64,000 nt of DNA from Chthoniobacterales bacterium (GTDB lineage Bacteria > Verrucomicrobiota > Verrucomicrobiia > Chthoniobacterales > Chthoniobacteraceae), in NCBI GenBank assembly GCA_038207335.1, contig JBBQZX010000016.1, positions 54,848-118,847 on the forward strand, in the 5' to 3' direction. How positions within the stretch are numbered: position 1 is the first letter of the stretch; each line of letters starts with the position of its first letter. The notes beneath the pieces are model-generated. The model saw nothing but the letters and a program-made list of their open reading frames with translations, did not search any database and was not told the origin of the DNA. Position numbers and translations under genes: made by a program. Shown here one piece after another: positions 30,563-63,763 of this stretch.

Positions 30563-30712
30563 GAGGGAATCTGCGGTGCGAGTGGGGAAACAGCGTCGAA
30601 GGACACCGTGGCGAGACTCTCCCGCAATCGTCCGATTTTGCAAGGAATCCCAAGCAGGCATGAAACAGGAGTGGTTTGCTTTCGACGCCGGATTCGTCCT
30701 TCATCGCTGTCC

Positions 30713-39000: not shown

Positions 39001-39423
39001 AAACGACTGCGCCCTCGGGATCGCGCTCGCCCCCCCCAGCCAGATGAAGCGCACAACAAAGGGATCCGCCAGCCGCGGGAAGTTCTTCAGCGCCAGCGCA
39101 TCGTAGGCGCCGTCCGACGCCAGATTCGCGTCGGGCTGGAAAGTGAGCACGTCCCAGTCGCCATTCACCGGCGGCGCCGGGTCGGAGAGATTGCGATACA
39201 GGCTCGGCGGGAAGAAGACATCGAAGCCGATATTCTCCTGAAAAATGCCGCCCGGATCGCTGACCAGATACCGGTATTCCCAAAGATCGCCGCCCGGCCC
39301 AAAGGAATCGTCGATGTCGCGCGCCTCGTACTGGATGCTGGCGGACTGAGCCCATCCGTGCGGCACCAGCGAAAGCAGCATGGAACAAACAAGGCGAAAC
39401 AAGTGGACCGAGTGCGTTTTCAT
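33085..39423 (-). CDS. Large secreted protein with internal PEP-CTERM, Ig/IPT-like, ZU5-like, Gly-rich, DTDGDG Ca-binding, beta-propeller and FG-GAP repeats
   Basis: Signal peptide ending GWA-Q, VPEPTTATMLLAGAGLLALRRRRR at ~aa 162-185, QFGPDGLTFTAPVSVTIP, DTDGDGL.D..E repeats (~34960-35215), GD(L/F)(D/N)GDG.(L/P)D repeats (~33120-34170). Confidence 0.9.
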   Translation of the reverse strand: MKTHSVHLFRLVCSMLLSLVPHGWAQSASIQYEARDIDDSFGPGGDLWEYRYLVSDPGGIFQENIGFDVFFPPSLYRNLSDPAPPVNGDWDVLTFQPDANLASDGAYDALALKNFPRLADPFVVRFIWLGGASAIPRAQSFEVNQFDAGGNFIQTLQTGMTVPEPTTATMLLAGAGLLALRRRRRFLAVLLAGGLLAPSGAFAQASVPELTLDSIVQVREERITRTLYEYEYRARVKNSGTRRFQNVAATVTTNAAAITLSDAGVSFGDVLVKGVAQSTDTFTFRFDRRVPFDPTALQFTFAGTAVAPVAPVLSNLVAPATLVRGTAGVVTFDFADADGDISVLKFTRQDALGSSAEDLAASLAHISGASGRATLPLDSASLPFGPVELSLTLRDGQDVASQTVSFTVNITGPANTGVAPSVVAFAPEVASYDRPVRVMDRVRPRLSLEVADADDDLELLRVRFTEPGGSARLSEFPADEFLPTATGTRTGSVKLDFRSDSALGNYTIEVTPFDRNGHAGAPTTTTVQLTSFGGARSRFYVNAPNPGSGSPGDQIDLSGFGFSTTPGAETVFELGEIPCEIVSLDAFQARVIVPVGSRTGAFTATQPDGSRAVSPQNFTVVEHVVIAPDAEEMPAVSVGGTVSFSARVGTAQVDRSVAWRVNGVPGGSAALGTISPAGIYTAPAIPPAGAVQITAALTASPAVVSVATPVAVLPPVATPGEVPVLAAFGATVPAADFRSSVTIPPGALAANATITARTLGSAELPDAGPGRRTLGAAQFGPDGLTFTAPVSVTIPLTVSRLPGTALRLRFLQANGTFVDEGITALVNATGDGAVASITHFTTPTVDEAAAANPPGIAPTITSIEPTEIEENALQPLRLTGSDLTGDLRVEMRNPDGSLAGGMRPGTLVAAGDRAGFVLDTDAIRDLGESQTRVYRVRLVRAHDDALFAEIPLTVRGLPELEVSAGEHLDLTEPAPMRLSTLTLGRDARVRILSGVFNATVLGETRIYGTIDASGERGANAIQQAGGLRSRDGGAGGDGVPSSASYGQNGNDPVGVSEPFQLPPPRRIDNQTRSARGIGGAPGEDASFDPVSLVAAIVECIGTLGVACPEAVRQLIEQGQSALNVADGSTNGRRGLGAPALSTFLTTGGGGGGGGGELSVSVFILGGMNLYGGGGGAGGSGGAGVLLTTARSITGSGAFDSAAPVVDARGGDGGDGSSKSSIHVRALFFEVYSEGNVDAFWGGGGGGGRTGLVTVNAAQGVLLDSTDRLRIGGGHGGRGGVTVIDAVNSRNQESYEDSTASDAEGYRGARVIRTPIFSPLAFAPRVVGRSVVNLRSERTLDKGPLRFTVYGEGGKELTVVARFDEPTQRYEANVVLFQGFNTVTDPGLLQGNPVTAQRLLMLGIDTDGDGLTDEDEADFGTDPALADTDGDGLSDGQELAFGSDPLFADGDSDGLSDGAELAANTDPTKSDTDGDGFTDSAEVFLGSNPLRAQSVPTSIPPGTLFASSAAGSGSFLTLLNPADGRNQGLLGRPNAGLGFGLAFDEISTLYIANLTGLSEYDPLAMTARPIGSFGNDGGAPIRCTSLAYNPADHRLYGIEIGPAPDFANTAQLLRIDPFTGAATRIGAPGAYAIHALVFTRDGTLFTTADGSVNSDRFIELDPATGALIRVIGMTNAAPIYGLAITRQDVIFAAQPLPNNSSRIHTIDPLTGVAMLTTSVPRNVFDLAIKPPPAPAFTLPPVASASSNPNEFDYRFATGDLDGDGKLDAVVLSSNYFPHYVSIRRGDNTGAFIETTRFQLPGFSSDIGESVALGDLNGDGRLDILIDNPENSFPGPRGLALLLANVSAPGEFDAPVSIGTSAGLGGGLTLANVNPLDDAFLDIISGGTADHTFVTLGDGQGGFGTPMDFDAANRINGLTADMNGDGFPDLLLTSVDAPQGMSAFSIRLGDGHGTFAPEVVHVVPVEYFDRIATGDFDGDGRLDVALLSLRLLPSGDFQSELILMRQDPTGAFAASSTVVFPGFNDNVLAVGDLTGDGLADAAVVTRTPDSDQGILMVFAGRPDGTLRAGSSTLLQSGAYDLHIADANGDGRPDIIISETGNGTGTRTYLVEPSF

Positions 39424-39605
39424 AAGACTACCAAGGGTAAGCCGCCGGGCCGTAAAGCTGACGGCCTTAGCACCATAGTGACCGCGCTGCCGACCGCCCA
39501 TCAAACTAAAGTCACAAAATAGCGCCGGCTTTTCGTCGGGCGACGCAGGCTTGAACTGCCGCCGACGGGGTTGCTCTTTTTGCAAAAGCTCCACACTCTC
39601 CGCTC

Positions 39606-40769
39606 ATGGCCAAGCCGCTCCGCAAATCGCCCGGCGTCCTCAACCGCGCACTGGAAAAGCCGCTCGTCGCGTTGCAAGCGGCGATCACCGGCGACGCGGT
39701 CATCAAGGCTCTCTTCGCCCTGCTTCAGCGTGCGGTTCCGTGCGATTTCGCCGGCGCTTTTCTCCGGCACGAAGATCACGCCTATGGCTCGGTTCCGTTC
39801 CGTTTCATGGATTCCCGGGGACGCGACTTCGGGCCGCAGCTCGCGGATGGCGTCTTCTTCCGTGAACACCCCGCGATGCCTGTGCTGCTGGCGAATCCCG
39901 GCATCCGCTTCATTAATACCCGCGAGACGCTGCCGCCGGATGAGATCCTCCATGCTTCGCGATTTTACCGGGAAGTGATGCAGGTCATCGGCTTCCGCCA
40001 TGCCATCGGGATGTATTTCTGGGACGACCCGCCTCGGATGCCGGAGGCGGTTCTCTCGGTTAGTCGCGGCGAGGGCCAGCCGGACTTCACCGATGAAGAG
40101 GTCTCGATCCTCGACCGCCTCTACCCACACATCGACGCCGCCCTCCGCCGAATCCGCGCGATCGAAAGGGAACGCGCCGTGCGGAGCGAACTCCACAGCC
40201 TTATCGACCCGGCGCGCGCGGCCTGTCTGCTTCATTGGGACCTCACCGTGGCCGATGCGAATCGCGCCGCGCGCGAGCTGTGTGCCCGGTGGCATCTCGG
40301 CGAGGCCAGCGCCCACCTGAAGACGCCGCGCTTTGTGCTCCCCGAGCCCCTGCGCGAGGCATGCGTGGGCCTGAAAAAACGCTGGCAAGCTTCCCTCCGC
40401 GAAAGTCCCGCGACGGGCACCGCCGAGCGTCTCACCGTGCCGCACCCCGAGTGCCCCGCCCTTTTTGCGAAGGTTACATTGCACGTCCAGCACATCGATC
40501 CGCTGGGCAAGCCGGTCTTCCTCATCGAGTTCGAGCCGCCGAAAAACGACGCCGCCCCGCCGCGCCGATTGAACGGCAAAATGAAACTCGCCGCATTCAC
40601 CCTCGCCGACCGCGAGCTGATCCGGCTCGTGCGGGAAGGACACAGCAACCAGGAAATCGCCACCGCGACCGGCCGCGCGCTCGGAAGCGTAAAGAACGCC
40701 CTGCACGCGATTTTCGAGAAGGTCGGCATTCGCAGCCGAGCCGCGCTCATCGCGAAAGTGGGCGACTGA
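39606..40769 (+). CDS. LuxR-type HTH transcriptional regulator with GAF-like N-terminal sensor
   Basis: C-terminal LVREGHSNQEIATATGRALGSVKNALHAIFEKVGIRSRAAL, R....PDFTDEE..IL..L.PH motif. Divergent from the 33085-39423 gene. Confidence 0.88.
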   Translation: MAKPLRKSPGVLNRALEKPLVALQAAITGDAVIKALFALLQRAVPCDFAGAFLRHEDHAYGSVPFRFMDSRGRDFGPQLADGVFFREHPAMPVLLANPGIRFINTRETLPPDEILHASRFYREVMQVIGFRHAIGMYFWDDPPRMPEAVLSVSRGEGQPDFTDEEVSILDRLYPHIDAALRRIRAIERERAVRSELHSLIDPARAACLLHWDLTVADANRAARELCARWHLGEASAHLKTPRFVLPEPLREACVGLKKRWQASLRESPATGTAERLTVPHPECPALFAKVTLHVQHIDPLGKPVFLIEFEPPKNDAAPPRRLNGKMKLAAFTLADRELIRLVREGHSNQEIATATGRALGSVKNALHAIFEKVGIRSRAALIAKVGD

Positions 40770-41026
40770 TTTAGAAAAGCCCTCGTCTGCGTCCCCCACC
40801 GCTGCCCTGTAGGCACCTTCTTGCCCCATGTCGGCGGCAGTTTGGGTGGCGTCGGCGTCAGTTTGTCCCACGTCGGTCGGCGACATCCTACAAAGTGCCG
40901 CCTACGGCCGACACAATGGAGAAGATGCCGATGAGCGAATGCGGAGGCGACGGCGCGCTTCGCTCCAGCTCGGCTGTGGAGGGCACTGCGCTGTCGGTGC
41001 CGGGGGCGGAGTGGCGGCGGGGCGGC

Positions 41027-43021
41027 TCAAGCGATTTCTTCGCCGGAGAAGGAGAGGGCTTCGCCGAGCCATTGGTCGGCTCCCATGACGGCTTTGCGTT
41101 GCTTGAAGGCGAGGCTTTGCGCGTTTTGCTGGGCGTGCCGGAATGCCATGTGGGCGATCTTTTCCCAGGAGGGAAGATGGTCGGTGACGGCGCGGCGGAG
41201 GATGCGCTGGAGGGTGGGGCGGAGGTGGCGGCGGACGAGTTCGTCCTCGATGCTGACGAATGCCTGGGCGCTGCCGGGGTCGCCCTGCCGGGCGCTGCGG
41301 CCGAAGAGCTGGCGATCGACGCGCTGGGATTCGTGGCGCTCGGTGGCGATGACGTGGAGGCCGCCGGCGGCGGCGATGCCGCGGCTGAGGAAGATGTCGG
41401 TGCCGCGCCCGGCCATGTTCGTGGCGATGGTGATGCGGCCGGCTTCGCCCGCCATGGCGATGACGGCGGATTCTTCTTTGAGGCGGACGGCGTTGAGGAT
41501 GGCGCACTGGAGGGCGCGTTCGGCGAGGAGGACGGCGAGTTTTTCGCTAGCGGCAACGCTGCGGGTGCCGACGAGGAGGGGGCGCCCGGTGGCATGGACG
41601 CGGGCGATTTCGTCGGCGACGGCGTGCCACTTTTGCTCCTCGATGGCGAAGACGCGGTCGGGCCAGTGCTCGCGGAGGCAGGGGCGGTTGGTGGGGATGG
41701 GGATGACGGGGAGGCGATAGACTTGCCAGAATTCGGCGGCGGCTTCGCGCGCGGTGCCGGTCATGCCGGCGAGCTTGTGGAAGCAGCGGAAGAAGCGCTG
41801 GAAACTCAGGCGGGCGATCGTCTCGGAGGGGTCGGAGATTTCGAGGCCTTCCTTGGCTTCGATGGCCTGGTGCATGCCCTCGCGCCAGGTGCGCTGGGGC
41901 ATGGGGCGGCCGGTGAATTCATCGACGATGACGACTTTTCCTTTCTCGATGATGTATTGCTTGTCGCGGTGGAAGAATTCGCGGGCGACGAGGGCCTGGA
42001 TGGCGAGTTCCATGCGGCGTGAGTCGCCGCGCCAGACGCCGGGGAGCGAACCGCTGGTGGCTGCGACTTTCGCTAGGCCAGCCTCGGTGAGTTCGATTTC
42101 CTTGAAGCGGAGATTTGGGCGGTAGTCGATGCCCTCGACGAGGTCGGCGACGATCTTCTGCGCGGCCTGGCCGGCGTCTTTCAAAAGCGGATTTTCGTGG
42201 GTGGCGGAGATGATGAGGGGGGTGACGGCTTCGTCGATGAGGACGCTGTCGGCCTCGTCCACGATGGCGGTGTGGAGGCCGCGCATGACGAGGCCCTCGA
42301 TGGCGGCGGCGCGCGAGCCGAGGAGGCGGGCGACGAGGCGACGGGTGGGATTGTGGAGCGCGCCGACGCGGAGGCGGTCGCGGAGGAAGTCGGCGAGGAG
42401 TTCCTTGCTGGTGGTGTAAGTCACGTCGCAGGCGTATCCCTTTTGCCGGTCCTCCGGCTGCATTGCGCCGGTGACGCAGCCGACGCGGACGCCGCAGTAG
42501 TCGTAGAGTTTGCCAAGGCGCTCGGCGTCGCGCTCGACGAGGTAGTCGTTGACGGTGACGATGTGGCAGGGGCGTTTCGTCCAGCCCGCGAGGACGGCGG
42601 CGAGCCCGGCGGTGAGAGTCTTACCCTCGCCCGTCGCCATCTCCGCGAGGAAGCCGCGATGCAGGGAGAGGACGCCGATGATTTGCACGAGAAAGGGGCG
42701 CATCCCGAGCTCGCGCGCGGAGACTTCGCGAATGCCGGCGAGGGCGCGGATGAGGCAGGCGTCGCTCTCGCGTCCGCCGCGGCGGAAGGTCTCACGGTAT
42801 TCCATGAGGCGGCGGTGGAGGTCGCGGGTCGAGAGGGCGGTAGTCTCGGCGGCGAGGCGCTCGACTTCGAGGGCGTCTTTTTCGAGCTGGGAGAAGATAG
42901 CGCCGCGGCGGTGGTAGGCGCCGATGGCGTCGTTCACGGCGGCGTCGATGCCTTTCAAGGGACGCGCCGGGACGCGGTAGGCGGTGCGCCGGTAGTCGTG
43001 CGTCGGGACGAGCGGGGTCAC
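41027..43021 (-). CDS. Accessory, C-terminally truncated SecA-family ATPase
   Basis: EMATGEGKTL, TVNDYL, IVDEADSVLIDEA, VDEFTGR, HQAIEAKEG, GMTGTA, ATNMAGRGTDI, RQLFGRSARQGDPG. Only 664 aa, ending ~60 aa after SIEDEL. Confidence 0.93.
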   Translation of the reverse strand: MTPLVPTHDYRRTAYRVPARPLKGIDAAVNDAIGAYHRRGAIFSQLEKDALEVERLAAETTALSTRDLHRRLMEYRETFRRGGRESDACLIRALAGIREVSARELGMRPFLVQIIGVLSLHRGFLAEMATGEGKTLTAGLAAVLAGWTKRPCHIVTVNDYLVERDAERLGKLYDYCGVRVGCVTGAMQPEDRQKGYACDVTYTTSKELLADFLRDRLRVGALHNPTRRLVARLLGSRAAAIEGLVMRGLHTAIVDEADSVLIDEAVTPLIISATHENPLLKDAGQAAQKIVADLVEGIDYRPNLRFKEIELTEAGLAKVAATSGSLPGVWRGDSRRMELAIQALVAREFFHRDKQYIIEKGKVVIVDEFTGRPMPQRTWREGMHQAIEAKEGLEISDPSETIARLSFQRFFRCFHKLAGMTGTAREAAAEFWQVYRLPVIPIPTNRPCLREHWPDRVFAIEEQKWHAVADEIARVHATGRPLLVGTRSVAASEKLAVLLAERALQCAILNAVRLKEESAVIAMAGEAGRITIATNMAGRGTDIFLSRGIAAAGGLHVIATERHESQRVDRQLFGRSARQGDPGSAQAFVSIEDELVRRHLRPTLQRILRRAVTDHLPSWEKIAHMAFRHAQQNAQSLAFKQRKAVMGADQWLGEALSFSGEEIA

Positions 43022-45177
43022 AGTTGGTAGCGCTTTTGCAAGAGCTGCCGGAGGTCGCGGACCCAGCGCGTGAGGAGGGGCTCGGACTGGAGATTGAAAC
43101 GGATCTTGCCGGAGCAGCCGTCGAAAAGGGCGGCCTCGTGGTCGGCGGGAAGCTTGCCGATGACTTTAAAATACGGCTCGGCGGATTTGCTGCCGTGCTC
43201 GTCGTCTGCGGCGACCGGGACGTCTCCGCCGCCGCGCTGGCCGAGCGCGGGCGAGGGCAGGACGCGCTGCTCGCCGGGAATCACGCGCCACTCGCCGACA
43301 GGGAGGGCCGTGGCGGTGTCGTCGATGAGCCGCACCTCCGCGCCGGGTCGCTGGCGAATGAAGACGCGGTCGGCATCTTCCTGCAAAACGGTGGCGACGA
43401 ACTCGAACGACGAGGGATCGACGAGCAGGCCGAGATTCGAGCCGCGGCTGAGCCAGCGCCCGAGGTAATCCCCGATGCCCGGCGCGACCCAGACGCCGTC
43501 GTGCCGCGCGCGGATGGTCATCGCGGCGGCGTCGGCCCGCAATTTCGCGAGCCGCTCGGCGACGGCGGCCTGCGATTGGAGCAGCGGCTTGAGGTCGGCG
43601 GTCTCGGATTTCTGCGCTTTCAAAAGGCGCGCCCGCACTTCCTCCGCACGCGCCACGGTCTGCGCGAGGTCGAGTTCGAGTTCGCGATTGCTCATGCGGA
43701 TGAGCGGCTGCCCGGCGCTGACGCGGCTGCCCGGCGGTGTGAGGAGCGCCTCGACGATGCCCGCGGTGTCCGTCGAAATCTCCGTGCGCTGCGTGGCGCG
43801 CACGACTCCCGGCGCGCGGTAGTGGTGCGGAAAAGGGACGATTTGAAAGATCACGAGCAGCACCGCGGCGAGCGCGCCAGTGACCGCGATCGCCCGGCCC
43901 CGCACGCGCGTGAGGCGAGGACTGGAGGCGAGATATTGCACGAATTTGATGGCCGGCACCGTGACCCACGAGATGAGGCAGACCGCCGCCATAATGAGCC
44001 CGATGATGAGAAAGCGATCGGCAATCGCGAGCAGGATGCCGGCAAAAACCGTGACGCGATAAATCGCGCTCGTGATGCCAAAGGTCGCAAAGCCCCACGC
44101 GCCGCCGGTGGTGCGCGCCGGGCTCACGGATTTCTTCACGCCGAAGAGGTAGTGCTCGAAAAGATGCTTGAGCTGCGCGGTGGCGCGCTGGTGCAGGTTG
44201 GGGACTTCGATGAGGTCGGAGAGGATGTAATAGCCGTCGAAGCGGAGCAGCGGGTTGAGGTTGAAGATGAGCGTCGAGACGGAGGCGACGAACATGATGT
44301 TGTGCGCGATACTGTGCGCCGCGCCGGGCCCCGTTTTCGCCCAGACGAATGCCGCAATCGCCGCGACGAAGAGCTCGACGATCATCCCCGCGGAACCCAC
44401 GAGTGCCCGCCGCCACTTGCTTCGGAAGCCCCAGCTCGACGTGGCATCGACGTACGGGATGGGCGTGAAAATCATGAGCATGAGGCCCATCACGTGGACT
44501 TCGCCGCCCCACTTTCTGCAAAAATACGCGTGTCCGAATTCGTGGATGGTCTTCACCAGCGCGAGCGCGAGGTAGAGGAATGGGAGGTTCGCCGGCGCGA
44601 GGACGGTCTGCGCTTCGGCCCACAATCCGCCGACGTTATCGACGACGACTTTCACGCCAAAGCCGACGACGACGAGCCAGATGAGCGCACCGAAAATGGA
44701 GATGAATTTGCCGACAATCGGCAGCGTGCGGACGAGGAAGCGATCGGGATCGAGAAGCGGAAACCGCATGAACATGATGTTCAAAAAGCGGGATCCGATC
44801 TCGCGCTGGCGGCGGCGTTTGAAACGCTCGAAAAGCTGCGCAGCATCGGCGGCGGTGTCGTACTGGAGGAGGTTGGAAAAGTAGAGCTGCGAGAGGAGCT
44901 GGATGACTGCTTCCTGGCCGGGCGCGGTGTCGGGGAAACGTTCGAGGCATTCGCTCCAGACTTCCTCGACGGAGCGCGACGCGCGCAGCCGCGCGACGAA
45001 TTCAAACGCCTCCGGCCGCAGCCGGAAGAACTCGTTGCTGAACGGATTCTCCAGCACGATCCAGCGCTCGCCGCGGAAGTCCTGACGCCGCACGACCACG
45101 CCCGGACGCAGGCAAATACGCTGCTTCGCAACGCGATACCACGACTCGCTAAATGTGGCAGAAGGATCGCCCGGCAT
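43018..45177 (-). CDS. PqqD/RRE-like + M50 (site-2) metalloprotease + HlyD-like membrane-fusion fusion protein
   Basis: IHEFGH and NLNPLLRFDGYYIL M50 motifs in a multi-TM region, lipoyl-like GSRVSAGQPL, coiled coil, IRARHDG. The stop overlaps the secA-like start (GTGA). Confidence 0.9.
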   Translation of the reverse strand: MPGDPSATFSESWYRVAKQRICLRPGVVVRRQDFRGERWIVLENPFSNEFFRLRPEAFEFVARLRASRSVEEVWSECLERFPDTAPGQEAVIQLLSQLYFSNLLQYDTAADAAQLFERFKRRRQREIGSRFLNIMFMRFPLLDPDRFLVRTLPIVGKFISIFGALIWLVVVGFGVKVVVDNVGGLWAEAQTVLAPANLPFLYLALALVKTIHEFGHAYFCRKWGGEVHVMGLMLMIFTPIPYVDATSSWGFRSKWRRALVGSAGMIVELFVAAIAAFVWAKTGPGAAHSIAHNIMFVASVSTLIFNLNPLLRFDGYYILSDLIEVPNLHQRATAQLKHLFEHYLFGVKKSVSPARTTGGAWGFATFGITSAIYRVTVFAGILLAIADRFLIIGLIMAAVCLISWVTVPAIKFVQYLASSPRLTRVRGRAIAVTGALAAVLLVIFQIVPFPHHYRAPGVVRATQRTEISTDTAGIVEALLTPPGSRVSAGQPLIRMSNRELELDLAQTVARAEEVRARLLKAQKSETADLKPLLQSQAAVAERLAKLRADAAAMTIRARHDGVWVAPGIGDYLGRWLSRGSNLGLLVDPSSFEFVATVLQEDADRVFIRQRPGAEVRLIDDTATALPVGEWRVIPGEQRVLPSPALGQRGGGDVPVAADDEHGSKSAEPYFKVIGKLPADHEAALFDGCSGKIRFNLQSEPLLTRWVRDLRQLLQKRYQL

Positions 45178-45180
45178 GAA

Positions 45181-47037
45181 TCACCACCAGAATTTCATCC
45201 GCAGGAAATCGACGGTGCGATGCGTGAAAATCCACCACAGCGTGCGCTTACCGCTCTCGATTTTGCACAGCCCGGTCATGCCCGGACGCCACCACTTTTC
45301 CGCGGACTCCGTTGGCTTCAGCCGCACGACGAAAACGTTGCCGTCCTTCTTCGCGAGCGCCGCGGCTTCGATCGATTGCACGGTTGCCTTGAACGTCGTG
45401 CGTGGCTGCGAGACGAACGCGAACTCCGACTCCGAGCCGACCGCGAGATTCTTGATGTCGCGCTCGTTCACCTCCGCCTCGACGTAGAGTCCCTCAATGC
45501 GCGCGAGCTTGTAGAGCGGCTCGCCTTGTTTCACCGGCGACGAGATGCGTTCGCGCAGGTCGCCCTCCACGATCACGCCATCGAATGGCGCGCGCAGCAC
45601 TGCGTTTTCCAGCCGGTGTATGACGAGGTCGAGCTTCGCTTTCGACTCCTCCATCAGCGCTTGCGAGATGCGCATTTCGGCCAGCAGATTTCCGGCGCGC
45701 GCCTTTTCCATCTCGCGCTCGTATCGCGTGATTTCAGCCGCGGCGGCGGATTGCTCGAGCAGCAAATCCGCGCGGTTGAGCGCCACGATTTCCGCGCCTT
45801 TTGAAAGCGCATCGCCCGGGCGAACCATCACCTTTTCGATGAATCCCTCGAACGGCGCGGTGAGATACGAGACCGCGTCGCTGCGCAAAATAAACGTCCC
45901 CTCGACGCGATAATTCACGCGCCACAGGAATAGCACAGCGAGGAGAATCACGCCGAGGATCGCGAAGACTTTAGGCCACGTGTGTTCCGGCCCGATGAGC
46001 TTCGCAGCTTGCTCGCGGAGCGCCGAAGCCGCGCGCGCACCGACCCAGCGGTCGCGCTTTTTCAGATCGCCAAGTCGCGGCGCGAGCTGATCGCAAAGCA
46101 GCCGGAGCTGCTGCATTTCCACCACCGTGAAAGGTGCCGTCTGCCGCTCGCACGCGAGCACCGCGACGACCTCCGAGTCGATGCGCAGCGGCACCGAGCA
46201 GAGATGCCCGGCGCTCTGTTCCTTCACGAATTTTTCGTGATCCCGCGCCACCACTCCCGCGCCGTCCGGCATCGGCCACAGGATTTCCTCATCCTGATCC
46301 GCGCACTCCTCCATCACCGCTTCGAGCGACTGCGCGGCAGCCATCTGCCGGTCAAACTTCTCCGTGCGGCTGATCGCCTTGAGCCGCACATATCCGCCCT
46401 CGATCCAGCCGACGCTTGCGCGGTCGCACACGAGCCGCGCGGCCACGCCGTTGCACAGCGCGAGCAGCGCGGCGATGAAGCGCTTCTCCGCATTCACCGG
46501 CACCATGAGGTCGAGCACGGTCGCAAATTTCTCCACGTCCGCCTGCGCCTGCCGACTCGCGAGATTTGCCTGATACAGCGCCGGCGTGTCTGCCGCGAGG
46601 CTCAGCCGCACGAGCGCATCCCGCGCCGCAGCCTCGGTGAAATCGAGGAGTTGCGCGACCAGCACGAGTTCGTCCTCGGCGCTCGCGAGCTTCATCCGTA
46701 CGCCGACAGTGAACGCTCCTGTCATCTCGTCGTCCTGCTCGACAAAGCTCCCCTCGCCCAGCCCGCGCTCCGCCGCCTGCTCGATGAACGCCGCGAAATT
46801 CGCCCGCTGCCGCGTCGCCGCGCCTCCCGCATTCCATTCACTGATCTTGATCCAGCGCGGCGTCTGCCCCGGTCGCCCGAGCATCAGCGCCGCGACGTCC
46901 GCGAGCGCAAGATGCGCGCAAGCCGCGAGCAGCCGTGGCCAAAATTCTTTCGCGGTCCCGGGAAATCTTCGCAGCGCCGCCAGCTCATCCGTCGCGCGCT
47001 CGAACCGCTCATCCGTGTCGTTCAGTTCCGATCCCAT
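45181..47037 (-). CDS. GAF-domain HlyD-family membrane-fusion protein
   Basis: CDRASVG, AVMEECADQ, LCSVPL...VVAVLACER (GAF-like), one TM, APFEGFIEKVMVRPGD, LRAPFDG, RPGMTG, LRMKFWW end. Confidence 0.88.
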   Translation of the reverse strand: MGSELNDTDERFERATDELAALRRFPGTAKEFWPRLLAACAHLALADVAALMLGRPGQTPRWIKISEWNAGGAATRQRANFAAFIEQAAERGLGEGSFVEQDDEMTGAFTVGVRMKLASAEDELVLVAQLLDFTEAAARDALVRLSLAADTPALYQANLASRQAQADVEKFATVLDLMVPVNAEKRFIAALLALCNGVAARLVCDRASVGWIEGGYVRLKAISRTEKFDRQMAAAQSLEAVMEECADQDEEILWPMPDGAGVVARDHEKFVKEQSAGHLCSVPLRIDSEVVAVLACERQTAPFTVVEMQQLRLLCDQLAPRLGDLKKRDRWVGARAASALREQAAKLIGPEHTWPKVFAILGVILLAVLFLWRVNYRVEGTFILRSDAVSYLTAPFEGFIEKVMVRPGDALSKGAEIVALNRADLLLEQSAAAAEITRYEREMEKARAGNLLAEMRISQALMEESKAKLDLVIHRLENAVLRAPFDGVIVEGDLRERISSPVKQGEPLYKLARIEGLYVEAEVNERDIKNLAVGSESEFAFVSQPRTTFKATVQSIEAAALAKKDGNVFVVRLKPTESAEKWWRPGMTGLCKIESGKRTLWWIFTHRTVDFLRMKFWW

Positions 47038-47041
47038 CGTT

Positions 47042-47767
47042 TTATTCGAGCGTCATTTTCCCCGCGAGCCCGGCCAGGACATTGCCGTCGGCGTTGTCGA
47101 AAAGCACCTTCACCCGCGCCAGTCCGCTTGCCGAATCCACGACCGGCGCGATCAGCACGAGCTTGCCATTCACGGCGTTCTTCGCGCCCTCGACCTCCAC
47201 CTTCACGCTCTGCCCGAGCTTCAAATCAGACGCCGCCGTCCCCTCGATGTGCCCGATGAAATAGCACCGCTTCGTGTCCACCATTCGCACGATCGGCTTG
47301 TACGGTTCGCAGCTCGCGCCGGGTTGGAGAAAATACTCGACGATCGTGCCATCGAACGGCGCCACGATGCGCCGCCGGCTAAGCTGCTCGTCCGCGATTT
47401 TTTGCTCGGCAGCGGCGACGCGAAACTCCGTCTCTTTCTTGTCCATCTCGTCCTTGCTCACCGATTTCGTCTTTTCAAAAAGCGTCTTCGTCGCCTCGTA
47501 GTCCGCCTTCGCGTGAACCATCACAAACTTCCGCCGTTCCGCCTCCAGCTCCTCCAGCGTGCTGTCGAGTTCGAGGATCACGTCGCCCTTTTTCACCTCC
47601 TCACCCTCCTGAAATTTCTCCGCGTGGATGGTTCCCTGCACCGACGAACTCAGCGTCACATCGAAAAACGGCTCCGTGATTCCCGTCACGACTTTCGCCT
47701 CCGCGGAAAAGGATCGCGTGATCGGGATGAATGCCACGAGCGCGGCGCAAAAAATGGATCGGATCAT
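47042..47767 (-). CDS. RND/HlyD-family periplasmic adaptor subunit
   Basis: Signal peptide, EGEEVKKGDVILEL, IVAPFDG, IAPVVDSASGLARVK..FDN. Confidence 0.88.
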   Translation of the reverse strand: MIRSIFCAALVAFIPITRSFSAEAKVVTGITEPFFDVTLSSSVQGTIHAEKFQEGEEVKKGDVILELDSTLEELEAERRKFVMVHAKADYEATKTLFEKTKSVSKDEMDKKETEFRVAAAEQKIADEQLSRRRIVAPFDGTIVEYFLQPGASCEPYKPIVRMVDTKRCYFIGHIEGTAASDLKLGQSVKVEVEGAKNAVNGKLVLIAPVVDSASGLARVKVLFDNADGNVLAGLAGKMTLE

Positions 47768-47823
47768 AGAAAAAACGGACGGCGAACCTGCCGACCTCGC
47801 AGCACAAATCAACCCCGCCTGCG

Positions 47824-49584
47824 TTAAAATTTGAAGTTGCCGGTGAGCGACACCGACTGGCCGAAATTATCCGCCTGCCACAGCCGCGCTGAGTAATCGA
47901 CCACCAGTCCGAAGTTCGCGGAAATCTGCACGACGACTCCGAGGCCAATCTCCAGCGCATCCGCGCCCGGAGCTTTCGTCTTCGTCGAGGCATTGAAACT
48001 CCCGACGCGGGTGAACCGATTGCCGCTCCCGATCTCGAACGGCGACTGCGTGAGCCCGACACCGACCGTCTCCGACTCGTCGAGAAATTCATGCGTCCAC
48101 GCGGCACGGAATTGCGGCGTGAACTCCACACCGCGGAATTCAAAAGGCCGCGACACCTGCCAGCCGACGCGCGACACGAGCGAGTCGAAATTCTGCCCTC
48201 CAACGCGCACATTCGCCGTGCCGCCGCCCGTCTCCGTGTAACCGTCAAGATCGCCGGTGATGTAGGTCAGCGTCGTGAACGGCCCAGTCACGAACCGCCC
48301 CGCATCCATGTTGTAGCCTAGGTTCAGCTCGATTGTGTGCGTGCGGCTGTCGGGCTTTGCGAGCGCCGTTTTTCCGAAAAGCGTGTCGCGCCGAATCTCA
48401 TGCTGGAACGTCCCGAAACTGTAGAGCGCATCGGCATAAAAACCCCATTTCGAGAACGCGATGTACGTCGTGAACGCCTCGCCCGTGATCTTCAAATCGC
48501 CGATGCCCAGCCCGAGATCGTTGTCACTTTCCACATATGTGAAAGCCGCGCCGAGCGTGAGTTCGGGCGTCACGTGAAATTCCAAGCCCGTCGTCGCCGC
48601 AAAGACATCCGAGCCAAAGCCGCTCGCCGGGAACCGCGACTCCTGATCGTTCGTGCTGTATTCGCCCGTCGTGAAATACTCGAAGCGCGACGCCACCCCA
48701 TGGCGCTCCTCGCGGTCGAGCGAACGCGACCGCACGCGCTGGCGGAAGAGCCGCGCATTCACATCGCGAGTTACATCGCGCACCGTCCCGAACAGTGCCT
48801 CCCGCTGCACCAGCGCCGTCGGCAGCGCGCTCCCGATGGCCGACGCGATCGCCTCGTAGTCGATCCGAAACTGGAGAAACACCGGCGCGAAAGTATTCGC
48901 ATCGACCCCAAGAAAGAGCGGCGACAGCGACTCGGGACTCCAACTCGCGCCGCCGTTTTCGCTGTGCGCCCATGTCGGCGAAAATCCCACTCCCGTGCCA
49001 TTTTCGCTATCCGTGTAGGCCGACGCGAACTGCCCGCTCGTCGCGCGCGTCACCACCCAGTAGGTCGAATCCGCCGCCAGCGGCAAGCCGCCCGGCCGCT
49101 GCCCCGACACCTGCACCCCGCCGACTCCGCTGCCGGCGAAAGGGTTCGCATTCGAGATTTTCACCCCGCCCGGCAGATTGATCGTCATGTTCGTCTGCGT
49201 GCCATTCGCGGTCGCCGTGAAGTTCGTCGTCCCGCCATCGCTGCTACGGAAGGTCACATCGCGCGGAGTGCCGGTGATCGCTCCCGAGGAGTTCAGCATC
49301 CCGACCAGCTTCCCTGGCCTTCCGTGGTCGTCCGTGAAAATCGCGGCCTCCACTGCTCCGTTGATATTGCGCTGCAACCGGAGCGTCACCGCATCCAGCA
49401 GATACCCCTGCCCGTCCGTCTTGAATTGCGATCCGAGCCACCGCGTATTCGTGATGCGCTCCACGCCATCGATCGGTTGCGTGAGATTCGTGCTCAGTGT
49501 CACGGCGCGCGCCGCGATGCCGGAAAGCATGAGCGCCACGCAGCCCGCGAGCGCTGCACATGGCGAAGAAAAAGCTCGCTTCAT
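47824..49584 (-). CDS. Autotransporter beta-barrel protein with small (choice-of-anchor R-like) passenger
   Basis: Signal peptide ending ARA-V, passenger WLGSQFKTD...LDAVTLRL...PG...L...STYWVV, helical linker, amphipathic strands (GAAFTY, YADALYSFG, DGYTETG), terminal FKF. Confidence 0.85.
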   Translation of the reverse strand: MKRAFSSPCAALAGCVALMLSGIAARAVTLSTNLTQPIDGVERITNTRWLGSQFKTDGQGYLLDAVTLRLQRNINGAVEAAIFTDDHGRPGKLVGMLNSSGAITGTPRDVTFRSSDGGTTNFTATANGTQTNMTINLPGGVKISNANPFAGSGVGGVQVSGQRPGGLPLAADSTYWVVTRATSGQFASAYTDSENGTGVGFSPTWAHSENGGASWSPESLSPLFLGVDANTFAPVFLQFRIDYEAIASAIGSALPTALVQREALFGTVRDVTRDVNARLFRQRVRSRSLDREERHGVASRFEYFTTGEYSTNDQESRFPASGFGSDVFAATTGLEFHVTPELTLGAAFTYVESDNDLGLGIGDLKITGEAFTTYIAFSKWGFYADALYSFGTFQHEIRRDTLFGKTALAKPDSRTHTIELNLGYNMDAGRFVTGPFTTLTYITGDLDGYTETGGGTANVRVGGQNFDSLVSRVGWQVSRPFEFRGVEFTPQFRAAWTHEFLDESETVGVGLTQSPFEIGSGNRFTRVGSFNASTKTKAPGADALEIGLGVVVQISANFGLVVDYSARLWQADNFGQSVSLTGNFKF

Positions 49585-49609
49585 GGCGCAGACTTCTGCG
49601 TACGCCGCT

Positions 49610-49685
49610 CGCGCGTGTCGAGCCAATTTCTCCGCTTTCCAAAAACACCAGTCGCCCGCGAAAGGCCGCTGGCACACGAACCGCA
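49610..49685. promoter_or_regulatory. Possible back-to-back sigma54 (-24/-12) promoters
   Basis: Plus strand TGGCACACGAACCGCA (49670-49685) towards the TolC gene and minus strand TGGCTCGACACGCGCG (49625-49610) towards the operon. Both have GG-N10-GC spacing but lack the TT of TTGC. Confidence 0.35.
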
Positions 49686-49795
49686 GCCATCGATATGTTT
49701 CGCGGAAAACACTTGCGGGCGGCGGCATCACGCGGGAGAAACACCGGCCGCCGCGGCAGCAAGTCCAACTTTTCCGAATCTCCAGTTTCCCGCAC

Positions 49796-51496
49796 ATGCG
49801 CCTTGATCGACTCCTCTTCGCCTCCGCATTCTTCATCGCGATCCTCTCGATCCCAGCGATGAGCGCCGCGAAAAGCGACGGCCCACCCGGCCTCAAAGTA
49901 AAGCTCACCATGCGCGAATATCTCCGCATGGTCCTCGAGCGAAACGAGACCATCCAGGCCCAGCTCCTCGGCACCGAATCCAGCCGCGAGCGCGCCGCAG
50001 CCGAAAAGGGCGCCTTCGAGCCCGAGCTCGTCGGCAGCGCCGAGCACACCCGCAACCGCCGTCCCAACACCGTGGAGCAACAGCGCAACCTGGCGGGCGT
50101 CCCCATCCTCGACGAGCACAACAACCTCTACGACCTCGGCATCGAAAACCAGACCCCCATCGGCGGCAAAGTCCGCCTCGGCTACACCCTCAACAACTTC
50201 AACAACAACCTCCGCCCCCTCACCGCCGCCGGAGTCGATCCCTCCACCGCGCCCGGCCGCACCAATGAATGGCAGAGCTTCTTCGGCCTCAGCGTCACCC
50301 AGCCGCTCTTGAAAAATGGCGGTGCCACCGCCGCGCTCGCCAATCTCCGCATCGCCGCCATCACCTCCGAGTCCGCCTTTCAGGAATATCGGCGCCAGCT
50401 CATGGTCACACTCTCGCAGGCCGCATCGGCTTACTGGGGCGTCTATTTTGCCCAGGAGCAGCTCCGCTTCCTCGACGAATCCGTCGCCGTCGCCGACTCC
50501 ATCCTCGCCGACAGCCGCGAGCGCGCTAAGGCCGGCAAAGGGGCCGAGCTCGACGTCCTCGAGGCCGAGGCCGGCCTCGCCCTCCGCCGCACCAAGCGCA
50601 ACGAAGCACTCCAGCACTTCAGCGAAGCCATGGGCCAGCTCCTCACCTTTGCCGGCCAGACCCCGCGCGACACCGGCGTCATCTATCTCGCCGCCGACGA
50701 CCCCGAGCTTCGCACCCCCGTCCCCTCCTATGGCGACAGTTGGGGCAGCGCCATTCGATTCAACCCCGACTACCTCATCCAAAAAAAGAAACTCGACGAA
50801 GCTCTCATCCGCCTCGCCGTCGCCCGCAACCAGCGCCTCCCCGAGCTCAATGCCAAAGGCTCCGTCGGCTACAATGGCCTCGGCGAATCCCCCAGCGAAT
50901 CCGCCAGCGAAGTCGGCAACGGCAGCTTCCCCTCCTGGTCCGTCGGCCTCGAAATGCGCATCCCCCTCGGCGGCGGCATCCGCGGCCGGCACGAATACGC
51001 CGCCATCCTCGCCACCGTCGGCCAGATCGAAATGCAGACCAAAGGCATCGAGACCCAGCTCGCGAATGCCCTCAACACCTCCATCCAGAAAATCAAAACC
51101 ACCCGCGCCACCGCCTCCGACTACCGCACGATGATCAACTTCAACGAAAGCCTCCTCACCACCGAGCGCGACCGCCTCGGCGTCGGCAAAGTCGAAGGCC
51201 GGCGCGTCCTCGAAGTCGAGGCCGGGCTCTTCGAGGTAAAACAAGGCCTCGCCGAAGCCCAAGTCGCCACCCAGCGCGCCGCCCTCGAGCTCGCCCTCGC
51301 CGAAGGCTCCGTCCTCTCCCGCAGCGGCATCGACTTCACCCCCGCCGAGCTCAAAGCCCACACCGCCGAACTCCTCCACGGCGTCCCCCAAAAAGCCACC
51401 TTCCTCGATAACCTCTTCAAAAAGCCCACCCCGCCGGCATCCCACACCCCCGTCAATTTCGCCCCCTCCAAACTTCAGCTCCGCGGCACCCCGTAG
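49796..51496 (+). CDS. TolC-family outer membrane efflux protein
   Basis: Signal peptide, G.FEPEL, LSVTQPLLKNGG, AYWGV..AQEQL, LDVLEAEA, NQRLPELN, WSVGLEMRIPLG. Confidence 0.9.
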   Translation: MRLDRLLFASAFFIAILSIPAMSAAKSDGPPGLKVKLTMREYLRMVLERNETIQAQLLGTESSRERAAAEKGAFEPELVGSAEHTRNRRPNTVEQQRNLAGVPILDEHNNLYDLGIENQTPIGGKVRLGYTLNNFNNNLRPLTAAGVDPSTAPGRTNEWQSFFGLSVTQPLLKNGGATAALANLRIAAITSESAFQEYRRQLMVTLSQAASAYWGVYFAQEQLRFLDESVAVADSILADSRERAKAGKGAELDVLEAEAGLALRRTKRNEALQHFSEAMGQLLTFAGQTPRDTGVIYLAADDPELRTPVPSYGDSWGSAIRFNPDYLIQKKKLDEALIRLAVARNQRLPELNAKGSVGYNGLGESPSESASEVGNGSFPSWSVGLEMRIPLGGGIRGRHEYAAILATVGQIEMQTKGIETQLANALNTSIQKIKTTRATASDYRTMINFNESLLTTERDRLGVGKVEGRRVLEVEAGLFEVKQGLAEAQVATQRAALELALAEGSVLSRSGIDFTPAELKAHTAELLHGVPQKATFLDNLFKKPTPPASHTPVNFAPSKLQLRGTP

Positions 51497-51533
51497 CCAT
51501 CAACGTCCGCATTCCTCGCTCAAATGCCGCGCC

Positions 51534-51672
51534 CTATTTCGCGATCGAAAATGTCGCCCGGAACAGCCCGGACGCGGGTCTTCGTCCCTCACGCTAGCCA
51601 CACCGACCAGGCGCCCCAAAAATCTCCGCCTCCAGTCGCGCACGAGCGGAAACGCGCGCAGCAGTTCGCGAT
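51534..51672 (-). pseudogene. Decayed duplicate of the 3' end of the HTH regulator gene at 61467-62102
   Basis: Aligns with 61467-61608 (cgaaaatgtcgccc..aacagccc, tccctcacg, atctccgc, cacgagcggaaacgcgcgca). Encodes LRAFPLV/RLEAEIF/ASGLFRATFSIAK* with frameshifts. Confidence 0.85.
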
Positions 51673-51761
51673 TTTGCGGAAACGCCGCGAAGCGCTAGTT
51701 CAATCCTCTGCAAATGGTCGCTGATGCAACCACGGTGCTTTGGCTGTGTGCTATCTCGTCT

Positions 51762-52472
51762 TCATGGACTCGGCCATTTTGCACGGACGGTGCGCTCCCA
51801 TTCGTCGGCCATCAATTGGTGGCCGGAGTAAGTCGGATGGACGCCATCCCAGATCCAGTGTTCCGCGGGCGCGACTTTGCAAGCCGCATCGAACACCGGC
51901 TGAAAGCGCACGAGCGCCGCGCCGTATTTGGCAGCGAGCCGCGCGACCACATCCTGCCGCGCCTGCACTCCGGCCCGCCACGTTTCATAGTCTTCCTTCC
52001 GCTTTCCGACCGGCAGCGTGAACGGCTCGCACAGGACGAGTCGCAGCTTGGGGTTGGCAGTCACAGCCTCGGCGAGCAAGGCATCATAGACTTGCTCATA
52101 TTGATCCAGCGGGACGCCGTGCGAGTGGTCGTTGATCCCGATGAGGATGCTGAGCACGTCGGGTTTCAGCTCGATCGTGTCCTTGGCCCAGCGCTTCTGG
52201 AGATCGAGCACCGTGTTGCCCGACACTCCGCGATTCATGATGTCGAGGTTTAGCGCCGCACATGCCGCGCCATATTTCGCGGCGATGATGAAGGCATACC
52301 CGTGACCAAGGATGTGATTCGGATCAGCACTGCGCCCGCGATTGCCATCGGTGATCGAGTCGCCTTGGAAGAGAATGCGCGCGTCCGGTGCGAAGACGGC
52401 GATGGGCTCCGCGGCATGGAGCAAGCCGAAGAATTCGGCGAAAAGGAAAACGGAAAAGAGGATCGATTTCAC
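51762..52472 (-). CDS. Secreted SGNH/GDSL hydrolase (esterase)
   Basis: FQGDSITD, NRGVSGN, ILIGIND, DGVHP. Confidence 0.92.
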   Translation of the reverse strand: MKSILFSVFLFAEFFGLLHAAEPIAVFAPDARILFQGDSITDGNRGRSADPNHILGHGYAFIIAAKYGAACAALNLDIMNRGVSGNTVLDLQKRWAKDTIELKPDVLSILIGINDHSHGVPLDQYEQVYDALLAEAVTANPKLRLVLCEPFTLPVGKRKEDYETWRAGVQARQDVVARLAAKYGAALVRFQPVFDAACKVAPAEHWIWDGVHPTYSGHQLMADEWERTVRAKWPSP

Positions 52473-55475: not shown

Positions 55476-55637
55476 ATAGGTTTTGGTTTCTGCGGCGACA
55501 AAGGCAGGGAGTGTGTGGCCGTCACCTGGGGTGCGGTGGGTCGGTAAAGCAAAGCTCTGTAAGGGGAGGAATCTCATCACCGATTTATACCCCGCTGGCG
55601 GGTGCCCCTCTCTGTCAAAATCTGTTATGATCCTGCC

Positions 55638-63629: not shown

Positions 63630-63763
63630 GGATGTTTTTCGGTTTGGAAAATTTGGAGCGTAGCGTGCGGACACACTTCGAGTGCGCAGCTGTGTTTGTC
63701 CTTTTTGTCGTAGAAAATTCGAGGTTGGGAGAAAACGCGTGGCCGTCATAACCTGCGCGTCCA

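Follow-up and report, generated by a model that had tools for sequence, protein, structure and literature searches.

A 64,000-nucleotide stretch of DNA from a Chthoniobacterales bacterium (Verrucomicrobiota; GenBank assembly GCA_038207335.1, contig JBBQZX010000016.1, positions 54,848 to 118,847; hereafter the window) carries genes reminiscent of a type I secretion locus, together with a short paralogue of SecA and no ATP-binding cassette (ABC) transporter. The window is the last 64 kb of its contig (C16, 118,847 bp), and also holds the beginning of an open reading frame (ORF) for a candidate cargo protein of 24,400 residues. With confidence slightly above even, we read the locus as a leader-dependent, TolC-linked machine that processes and exports this neighbouring giant and is fed by the short SecA at the expense of ATP. 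Five conserved genes encode a TolC channel, a small periplasmic adaptor, an adaptor with a GAF domain (GAF-HlyD), an adaptor fused to both a site-2 protease of family M50 and a recognition element (RRE) of the kind found with ribosomally synthesized and post-translationally modified peptides (RiPPs; the fusion is called M50-HlyD here), and the short SecA. These genes most likely form a dedicated envelope-spanning apparatus for proteins with an N-terminal LEPR-XLL leader.

Loci of this kind have been described before. Kamneva, Poudel and Ward reported a "secondary SecA_DEAD / type-I-secretion-related" locus from which the ABC transporter was missing, and listed Verrucomicrobia among the phyla carrying it (Kamneva et al., 2015; PLoS One, PMC4452313). 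According to the accessible portion of that paper, SecA was proposed to be the ATPase and the M50 protein a possible membrane pore, the role of the locus was stated to be unknown, and no experiments were reported. The original prediction for the window had correctly pointed to a comparative-genomics report of secondary SecA_DEAD proteins near type I-like genes in PVC bacteria, and this is the paper. The window contains the same gene set: a second SecA_DEAD protein, an M50-like protein with HlyD, a GAF protein with HlyD, an HlyD/biotin-lipoyl protein and the optional outer-membrane efflux protein (OEP), again without an ABC gene. The core of the interpretation, with SecA as ATPase and M50 as membrane part, had therefore already been published as a hypothesis, and the interpretation as a whole is partly supported.

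Gene calls, made from six-frame ORFs, Pfam and NCBIfam scans and a reading of start codons, place the minus-strand genes in the transcription order autotransporter, small HlyD, GAF-HlyD, M50-HlyD and SecA-like (Table 1). With the starts chosen, the spacings along this string are 56, 4 and 3 nt, followed by a 4-nt overlap; the TolC gene is divergent from the autotransporter gene, with approximately 210 nt between them. All six genes were confirmed at the positions, in the order and with the gaps originally given, and the accompanying parts list (short SecA, fusion of RRE, M50 protease and membrane-fusion protein, two further membrane-fusion proteins and TolC) agrees with the Pfam and NCBIfam matches and with structural models.

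This arrangement recurs far beyond chance. The M50-HlyD family comprises 4,352 clusters (50% identity) at E<=1e-30, and in contigs representing one genome per species, at least 563 of 600 candidate stretches encode a relative. The best 80 loci were analysed with up to 10 kb on either side, using six-frame ORFs and the window's proteins as queries. The short SecA lies directly downstream of M50-HlyD in 61 of the 69 loci with at least 2.2 kb of downstream sequence, GAF-HlyD lies directly upstream in 62 of the 66 with at least 2 kb upstream, and 63 of the 80 loci contain a further HlyD-type ORF. TolC was found at 25 or more of the 80 loci with the window's TolC as query, a lower bound because divergent TolC proteins are missed by this query. 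The loci span Verrucomicrobiota, Planctomycetota, Proteobacteria, Nitrospira, Spirochaetota, Fibrobacter and others; thus the neighbourhood profiling suggested with the original prediction shows the order GAF-HlyD, M50-HlyD, short SecA to be conserved across phyla. A consistently linked ABC or resistance-nodulation-division (RND) gene, which had been named as grounds for abandoning that prediction, was not seen: profiles derived from the 35 ABC domains and 7 RND pumps of this genome detected an ABC gene at three of the 80 loci (L022, L069 and L075), in every case at a distance of more than 2 kb and never adjacent, and RND genes at none.

The candidate cargo is encoded by a single ORF (C16:1619-74818) that runs for 24,400 residues from a GTG start without a stop codon or an N, and includes 1 cysteine. 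In Pfam, its last 4,999 residues contain a PKD domain and 7 stretches of RTX nonapeptide repeats (201.8 bits), FG-GAP repeats lie upstream of these, and long stretches of the protein have no match. The N-terminus has a basic start and no Sec-type hydrophobic core. Residues 12-33 match the NCBIfam model LEPR-8K/NF012209 (26.8 and 32.1 bits against a cut-off of 17), the sole match in the genome; NF012209 matched none of 14 control genomes, and a broader regular-expression search of the genome yielded no other convincing LE-x-R leader. An alignment of 16 leader N-termini (A2) has the consensus FxLExLEPRxLLSADP, in which E18 and R20 are invariant. The conserved signal found is N-terminal, while the RTX repeats lie near the C-terminus.

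The cassette co-occurs with proteins bearing this leader. At 18 of the 80 loci there is a long ORF with an N-terminal LExLEPRxLL-type motif, 17 of them convincing by eye and one (L047) doubtful. In the complete genome of the cultured gammaproteobacterium Vreelandella aquamarina (L054; G301:C1:1418719), a SecA-type cassette lies directly beside a LEPR-XLL ORF with an open frame of 20,892 codons. Co-occurrence was counted in a sample of 301 Verrucomicrobiota genomes, using NF012209 and an alignment (A1) of 49 full-length M50-HlyD relatives with 30-49% identity to the window's protein, both run on the same draw. The A1 scores were bimodal, separating a SecA-type cassette (at least 721 bits, 25 genomes) from a sister type (310-470 bits, 42 genomes), and the split was fixed before the LEPR results were viewed. 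LEPR matches were present in 22 of the 25 genomes with the SecA-type cassette (none in G169, G222 and G281), in 0 of the 42 with the sister type only, and in 1 of the 234 with neither (G231, the weakest match, E 9.6e-4). In 14 of those 22 genomes the LEPR gene and the cassette share a contig and are no more than 30 kb apart, and the LEPR-positive genomes span 11 family codes. A second sample comprised 250 scored genomes from the class of V. aquamarina (G520 went unscored), with a threshold of 0.9 bits per aligned position that allows for fragments at contig ends; here the corresponding counts were 9/14, 1/16 (G509) and 1/220 (G394). Pooled over both samples, the leader occurs in 31 of 39 cassette genomes and in 3 of 512 others. 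The centre genomes had been picked for carrying the cassette, and the SecA-type counts become 21/24 and 8/13 without them; no P value is given because related genomes are not independent.

The leader's predicted receptor is M50-HlyD, which comprises an N-terminal cytoplasmic domain (~19-106), a multi-pass metalloprotease and a periplasmic adaptor (~448-709). Pfam assigns the protein a Peptidase_M50 match (PF02163, 27.8 bits against a cut-off of 27.2) and an HlyD match, and its protease region resembles the NCBIfam family daptide_HExxH (NF041824; E 3.2e-47, 161.5 bits against a cut-off of 300). The motifs HEFGH (212-216) and NLNPLLRFDG (306-315) contribute H212, E213, N306, N308, P309, L310 and D314, which are invariant in the 49 sequences of A1 and correspond to the zinc site of site-2 proteases. 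An AlphaFold2 model built on A1 reached a mean predicted local distance difference test score (pLDDT) of 87.7. Foldseek with the whole 719-residue model matched the C-terminal part alone, to MacA, MexA and AcrA (E ~1e-12); the RRE and protease folds surfaced in a wide VIA-align search, likewise with the whole model. In the latter search, residues 19-106 matched a lasso-peptide B1 protein with its leader (6jx3_B; Z 9.1, 84/85 aligned), residues 21-107 matched TbiB1 with its leader (5v1u_A; Z 8.6, 83/84 aligned), residues 196-391 matched Aquifex RseP (9j83_A; 164 aligned) with a Z of 9.0, which is middling for a helical domain, and residues 448-709 matched MexA, ZneB, MacA and EmrA (Z 14-15, 213-240 aligned). 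The modelled N-terminal domain has strands at 28-34, 37-44 and 49-53 and helices at 55-62, 70-80 and 88-100. The PqqD model of Pfam (PF05402) matches 15 of the 49 orthologues, and does not match the window's own protein at E<=0.01. By its motifs and modelled fold, M50-HlyD is a family M50 site-2 protease, and its N-terminal domain has the fold of an RRE and is predicted to bind the leader. Its description as an RRE-M50-adaptor fusion in the original prediction was accurate, given the three-domain matches, the PqqD matches and the likeness to daptide_HExxH. Among the matches listed, the closest named relatives are from Chthoniobacteraceae and other Verrucomicrobiota.

Leader recognition was modelled with residues 1-450 of M50-HlyD (A1) and residues 1-60 of the giant (A2). 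All three runs gave an ipSAE of 0.71, compared with 0.00 for the best control; of the solved complexes, 116 of 157 reach this mark, as do 2 of 215 mismatched pairs, a rough calibration since our own alignments were used. Partner pLDDT did not fall below 48, and at least 49% of contacts were common to the runs. In the confident interface, leader residues 9-28 lie on RRE residues 41-57 and 84-101 and on protease residues 205-216, 233-249 and 305-330. Leader residues 13-17 are predicted to run along the RRE strand 49-53 and helix 90-101, and those from 17-20 onward to touch the protease hairpin 238-249. Positions 205, 209, 212-213 and 216 of the HExxH helix, and 305-306 and 312-314 of the NPLLRFD motif, are included in the predicted interface. 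The model thus supports a leader that binds the RRE and sits at the zinc site of the protease. Together with co-occurrence in two samples, this controlled docking bears out the tie to very large proteins in the original prediction; that the M50 membrane domain and the SecA paralogue replace an ABC transporter, and that export takes place in one step, we infer.

These two lines of evidence also bear on a reading in which the cassette does not export proteins at all, and is instead a device for regulated proteolysis and signalling, or an efflux pump for small molecules or peptides, the giants being coincidental or merely regulated. GAF domains are usually sensory, and site-2 proteases of the RseP type usually act in signalling. 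Of the genes of the locus in Methylobacterium, the GAF gene alone was found expressed, according to the accessible text of the 2015 paper (PMC4452313). This reading appears very improbable, however, given that the cassette co-occurs with a specific N-terminal leader in two samples of phylum and class scale, that the docking prediction places the leader in the RRE and active site, and that three adaptors and a TolC are hard to square with signalling alone.

We thus return to an exporter, and to the part played in it by the short SecA. The genome has two SecA_DEAD matches, one in the short SecA on C16 and the other in a full-length SecA on contig C2 (an open frame of 1034 aa, of which 985 aa follow the likely start) with a Cys-rich C-terminal tail. 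The separate housekeeping secA that the original prediction proposed to look for is therefore present. SecY has 1 match in the genome, and no SecY2 was found. The short SecA scores below every NCBIfam cut-off for SecA (TIGR00963, 600.8 against 800 bits; NF009538, 590.8 against 814) and for SecA2 (TIGR03714, 470.3 against 930; TIGR04221, 426.8 against 725; TIGR04397, 546.7 against 1085; NF012136, 381.5 against 1100). It aligns with residues 17-603 of solved SecA chains of 778-844 aa (E 2.5e-138), which we take to be Bacillus subtilis SecA. The domains retained are the DEAD motor (nucleotide-binding domains NBD1 and NBD2) and the preprotein cross-linking domain, and the scaffold helix persists as a stub; among the motifs kept are what we take to be Walker A (MATGEGKT), the VDEAD box and, in NBD2, GRGTD, together with RQLFGRSARQGDPG. 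After the RQGDPG motif, 82 residues remain, compared with 321 in the genome's canonical SecA, and in 51 cassette SecAs of other genomes this tail has a median of 80 residues (range 31-134). The last 236 residues of the canonical SecA, used as a query, matched no ORF in the 80 related loci, whereas the control recovered the genome's own SecA. As judged from its sequence, the short SecA is a motor-and-clamp-only SecA, because the C-terminal third is gone while the motor and clamp domain are retained. In the five genomes checked, short-SecA copies equal cassette copies (two genomes have two of each), and each short SecA adjoins its cassette.

An alternative is that the short SecA works with SecYEG. 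In such a two-step route, the short SecA would hand the giant to SecYEG, the M50 fusion would serve as the leader (signal) peptidase, and the adaptors and TolC would take the chain from the periplasm. Accessory SecA2 proteins do deliver to the ordinary SecYEG channel, and SecA2 of mycobacteria uses it although its C-terminal domains, too, are incomplete; moreover, the alignment to solved chains marks the short SecA as a bona fide SecA relative, and a SecY is encoded in the genome. Nevertheless, we consider a two-step route quite unlikely. The leader has no hydrophobic signal-peptide core, the whole C-terminal third is gone, no SecY2 accompanies the single SecY, and a protease consistently fused to a TolC-type adaptor favours a direct conduit. 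The parts lost from the short SecA are, we presume, those that dock on SecY and reach into it.

A second cassette in the same genome (C18:85167-92131; L122:1168-8132) touches more closely on the role of SecA. Here, genes for GAF-HlyD (703-aa frame), small HlyD, RRE-M50-HlyD and TolC are co-oriented, with neither a SecA-like nor an ABC gene in the cassette. Its M50 fusion is 29% identical to that of the window, aligned from residue 22 to 712. On its 3' side lie a 429-aa ORF without a Pfam match and then YHYH and MbnP/MauG-type genes. Among 21 sister-type loci (this one and 20 from other genomes), none has a SecA gene within ~9 kb; ABC genes occur at five, none directly adjacent and the closest ~1.7 kb away (L124 and L127). 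Large ORFs with a related leader (MYQLEDRILFDGAA or LEALEQRxLLAG) stand at six of the 21, in other Verrucomicrobiota: L126:3-4334 (-), L130:2-3853 (-), L132:3-4094 (-), L137:15102-19901 (+), L124 and L127. Four of these neighbouring proteins, when extended, measure 3,105, 3,400, 4,014 and at least 7,998 residues. The 42 sister-only genomes that NF012209 failed to match belong to the sample from which these leader-bearing loci were drawn. Of five sister-only genomes, four returned one SecA_DEAD match each; in the remaining genome there are two canonical-length frames (960 and 929 aa), both on contigs other than that of the cassette. Since sister cassettes without SecA stand beside large leader proteins, a dedicated SecA is not a general requirement of such machines. 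The core formed by RRE, M50 protease and adaptor, together with its LE-x-R leader, thus predates the association with SecA and is more widespread, and the short SecA is an addition of the LEPR-XLL branch. As far as was looked up, the SecA-less sister cassette is a new observation of this analysis.

The main rival to our reading follows from these loci: the RRE-M50-adaptor, the other adaptors and TolC would constitute the whole exporter and leader peptidase, and the short SecA would be an accessory (a cytoplasmic holdase, unfoldase or targeting factor for cargo of the LEPR-XLL type) instead of a translocation motor or a substitute for the ABC transporter. Power might then come, for example, from the housekeeping SecA, the proton-motive force or extracellular folding. 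Export is kept in this account and SecA demoted, and we judge it unlikely, though clearly less so than a two-step route. The 21 sister loci, the single SecA_DEAD matches in sister-only genomes, and the failure of the canonical C-terminal 236 residues to match at any of the 80 loci all speak for it. On the other hand, no ATPase motif is missing from the short SecA, its clamp domain is retained, its translation is coupled to that of the M50 gene through the 4-nt overlap, and its copy number follows that of the cassette exactly in the five genomes; a stoichiometric part of the machine therefore fits better than a loose helper. The SecA-less sisters weaken the proposal that SecA replaces an ABC transporter, not the export reading itself.

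Other pumps that might serve the giant were sought in the genome. Contig C16 has 0 of the genome's 67 ABC_tran, 8 ACR_tran and 17 MFS_1 matches; the lack of ABC and RND genes that had been claimed for the window thus holds for the whole 118.8-kb contig, and no major facilitator superfamily (MFS) gene is present either. Searches for type I ABC families genome-wide gave best scores of 245.6 bits for PrtD (TIGR01842, cut-off 510) and 322.9 bits for LssB (TIGR03375, cut-off 693), HlyB (TIGR01846) not being searched. Of the parts of a type I system, the membrane-fusion protein and the channel are represented by three HlyD-type proteins and one OEP protein; a dedicated ABC exporter of the HlyB/PrtD/LssB type was not found on C16, and PrtD and LssB stay below their cut-offs genome-wide. 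Around the four ABC-B-type exporters, a phmmer search of limited reach detected neither an adaptor nor a TolC gene up to 8 kb away. The possibility that a canonical type I system elsewhere in the genome serves the giant was considered, and no such system was found at family cut-offs or in the ABC-B neighbourhoods; its absence is unproven because the assembly is 94.7% complete.

Several findings weigh against a SecA-fed exporter of the giant. The sister loci are among them, with no SecA gene in 21, with large leader proteins nearby and with single SecA_DEAD matches in most of the genomes checked. Even among SecA-type relatives, 8 of the 69 loci have no adjacent SecA (L016, L025, L034, L045, L051, L056, L058 and L074), and 3/25 and 5/14 of the cassette genomes in the two samples have no LEPR match. 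In the window, the start of the giant and the cassette are ~21 kb apart, with unrelated genes between them. The short SecA is without the C-terminal third of SecA, which presumably comprises the wing domain, the two-helix finger and the C-terminal linker. In the docking model the leader itself has a low pLDDT, and the score may partly reflect likeness, because the predicted mode is that of solved RRE-leader complexes. Furthermore, RTX proteins as a rule carry C-terminal signals and leave through ABC exporters, of which the genome encodes four generic ones, and to our knowledge site-2 proteases do not act as protein channels. Finally, a literature search found no experimental follow-up of the locus reported in 2015, and, as in the original prediction, no mechanistic characterization.

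Taken together, these considerations leave the leader-dependent machine with a SecA feeder as the reading we favour, and a tentative mechanism can be outlined for it. In a first step, the cytoplasmic RRE of the M50 fusion would bind the leader as an added β-strand, as the model suggests, and the LEPR/LLSAD segment would thereby be placed at the intramembrane zinc site, where the leader may be cut. The short SecA might then provide ATP-driven unfolding or feeding of the chain, N-terminus first. By analogy with tripartite pumps, the three adaptors, two of them membrane-anchored, would bridge to TolC, so that the chain could leave without a periplasmic stage. Outside, calcium-dependent folding of the RTX repeats may add pull, as in type I substrates. 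Leader cleavage, ATP-driven translocation and the identity of the inner-membrane conduit are steps that we infer. Somewhat short of an even chance, in our estimation, is the broader proposal of a distinct class of secretion system. In such a class, a short N-terminal leader on giant proteins would be read by a RiPP-type domain, a site-2-type protease fused to a TolC-docking adaptor would cut it off, and a SecA-derived motor that no longer has the parts for engaging SecY would feed the chain N-terminus first into a conduit linked to TolC, without an ABC, RND or MFS pump; the class would include a SecA-less sister with a related LEDRxLF leader and have the RRE-M50-adaptor, and not SecA, as its core.

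For proteins of 5,000-25,000 residues, passage through both membranes is understood in ABC-driven type I systems alone. Judging by the clusters and species-representative genomes counted above, the cassette is very common. If it is an exporter, it would represent a major secretion route that has gone unrecognised in environmental Verrucomicrobiota, Planctomycetota and Proteobacteria, SecA and site-2 proteases would be at work outside their textbook settings, and the orphan LEPR-XLL leader would gain a function. Because some carriers are cultured, including V. aquamarina and Methylobacterium extorquens AM1 (PMC4452313), the hypothesis is directly testable.

The remaining components of the locus are listed with their family matches in Table 1. 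Hydropathy divides GAF-HlyD into a cytoplasmic part of ~350 residues that contains the GAF domain, one hydrophobic segment (357-375) and a periplasmic adaptor. Small HlyD has a signal peptide of the cleavable type, and its TIGR01730 score exceeds the cut-off of 94.9. For TolC, the start chosen is the first ATG that gives a signal-peptide-like N-terminus, and the protein scores 102.6 bits with TIGR01844, under the cut-off of that model. The autotransporter combines a choice-of-anchor R domain with a β-barrel and its own Sec-type signal peptide, as in type Va secretion. It was considered as cargo or component, and rejected because a related gene occurs at one of the 80 loci (L003, the most similar of them) and because it has its own signal peptide. 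The autotransporter is thus probably a lineage-specific insert and a bystander outside the conserved set; the co-oriented position originally noted for it was correct.

Table 1. Genes of the cassette and the candidate cargo, with positions in the window
Feature	Position	Strand	Details
Short SecA paralogue	41027..43021	-	664 aa; Pfam SecA_DEAD 313.5 bits, SecA_PP_bind/PPXD, P-loop_SecA
M50-HlyD (RRE / site-2-protease (M50) / membrane-fusion-protein fusion)	43018..45177	-	719 aa
GAF-HlyD	45181..47037	-	618 aa; Pfam GAF 27.2 bits, HlyD_D23 65.2 bits
Small HlyD (small periplasmic adaptor)	47042..47767	-	241 aa from ATG; TIGR01730 RND_mfp 125.2 bits
Autotransporter	47824..49584	-	586 aa from ATG; PF03797 146.3 bits, NF041539 72.8 bits
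TolC/OEP outer-membrane channel	49796..51496	+	566 aa; PF02321 OEP 130.4 bits, two stretches
Giant candidate cargo, first 6,657 codons	1..19971	-	Single ORF C16:1619-74818, 24,400 residues
LEPR-XLL leader motif of the giant	19873..19938	-	Residues 12-33, FELQALEPRVLLSAD; NF012209

Scans of positions 40500-51800 gave no promoter-like site and 16 terminator-like sites (10.6 expected), none of them intergenic, and are uninformative on operon structure. When positions 41027-50900 were sought in sequencing runs, the runs listed were DNA runs of one sediment study, one of which may be the source, and no RNA run was among them. Convergent with the 3' end of the SecA-like gene lies a LuxR/GerE-type regulator (39606-40769, +) with a weak EpsA-like match (39.9 bits against a cut-off of 170), and a PEP-CTERM match is found in the neighbouring ORF (33085-39594, -). 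This ORF of 2,169 codons contains FG-GAP, bacterial TSP3 and DUF6923 repeats; its PEP-CTERM match, at residues 218-242, is near the N-terminus and not the C-terminus, which may reflect the choice of start or a second in-frame gene. Two further long ORFs overlap on opposite strands: the one at 27230-30661 (-) has Laminin_G_3 and ricin-type lectin domains and looks real, and the one at 27722-33007 (+) has an LprI match alone (residues 1675-1751), which probably marks a short real gene near 32.7-33.0 kb. Past TolC follow a GDSL lipase (51762-52472, -), a 1,206-aa polysaccharide-lyase-4-like protein with fn3 domains (52479-56099, -), a 1,353-aa Ser/Thr kinase (56526-60587, +) whose stop overlaps the gene of an extracytoplasmic function (ECF)-type sigma factor (60584-61300, +), and RtcB (62226-63830, -). 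Elsewhere, genes for SapC (10/80 loci) and DUF3467 (9/80 loci) recur near the SecA-type cassette (e.g., L057:6775-7143 and L062:4766-5566). Neither is in the window; tblastn of this genome found no SapC and one DUF3467-like ORF (C2:287344-287673), ~12 kb from the canonical secA.

Peptidase-containing ABC transporters couple recognition and cleavage of an N-terminal leader to bacteriocin export, and the cassette shares this logic of leader, cleavage and export. Those transporters combine a cytoplasmic C39 cysteine peptidase with ABC domains, whereas the cassette has an intramembrane zinc protease of family M50 with an RRE, and a cargo thousands of times larger. Accessory SecA2 systems (Gram-positive SecA2/SecY2, and the SecA2 of mycobacteria and Listeria) likewise have a second, non-essential-looking SecA, presumably for special cargo. 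In contrast, the short SecA is below all four SecA2 cut-offs, has no SecY2, is far more severely truncated and lies in an adaptor/TolC operon of a diderm.

Compared with the locus of Kamneva et al. (2015; PMC4452313), the window adds a 24,400-residue candidate cargo, a divergent TolC and an inserted autotransporter; no cargo, LEPR-XLL leader, RRE or SecA-less sister is named in the accessible portion of that paper. In the literature, the term LEPR-XLL surfaced in just two papers, both unrelated, and a search for an older description of a "planctomycete signal peptide" returned nothing usable. A 2021 review of tripartite pumps mentions SecA only alongside SecDF, and not the cassette, in the text that was covered. 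A 2023 preprint on giant genes, as far as its accessible text goes, describes SecA_DEAD domains within giant proteins of Omnitrophota, in a different arrangement.

Type I systems for RTX proteins and giant adhesins (HlyB-HlyD-TolC and LapB-LapC-LapE; see PMC8277102) share with the cassette a conduit of adaptor and TolC and a very large, nearly Cys-free RTX cargo. Their route has one step, and that of the cassette probably does as well. Type I systems use an ABC transporter, one adaptor and an uncleaved C-terminal signal, whereas the cassette has no ABC transporter, three different adaptors, a SecA-derived ATPase and an N-terminal signal that is probably cleaved. The likeness to RiPP biosynthesis concerns M50-HlyD. 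Its modelled N-terminal fold is like that of the lasso-peptide B1 proteins (6jx3 and 5v1u), with a predicted leader mode along the third strand and third helix, and its protease resembles the membrane metalloproteases of RiPP systems (daptide_HExxH, NF041824; YydH/LiaK, NF058609) below their family cut-offs. In RiPP systems, however, the substrate is a short peptide, whereas the candidate substrate of M50-HlyD is a giant protein and the protease is fused to a periplasmic adaptor.

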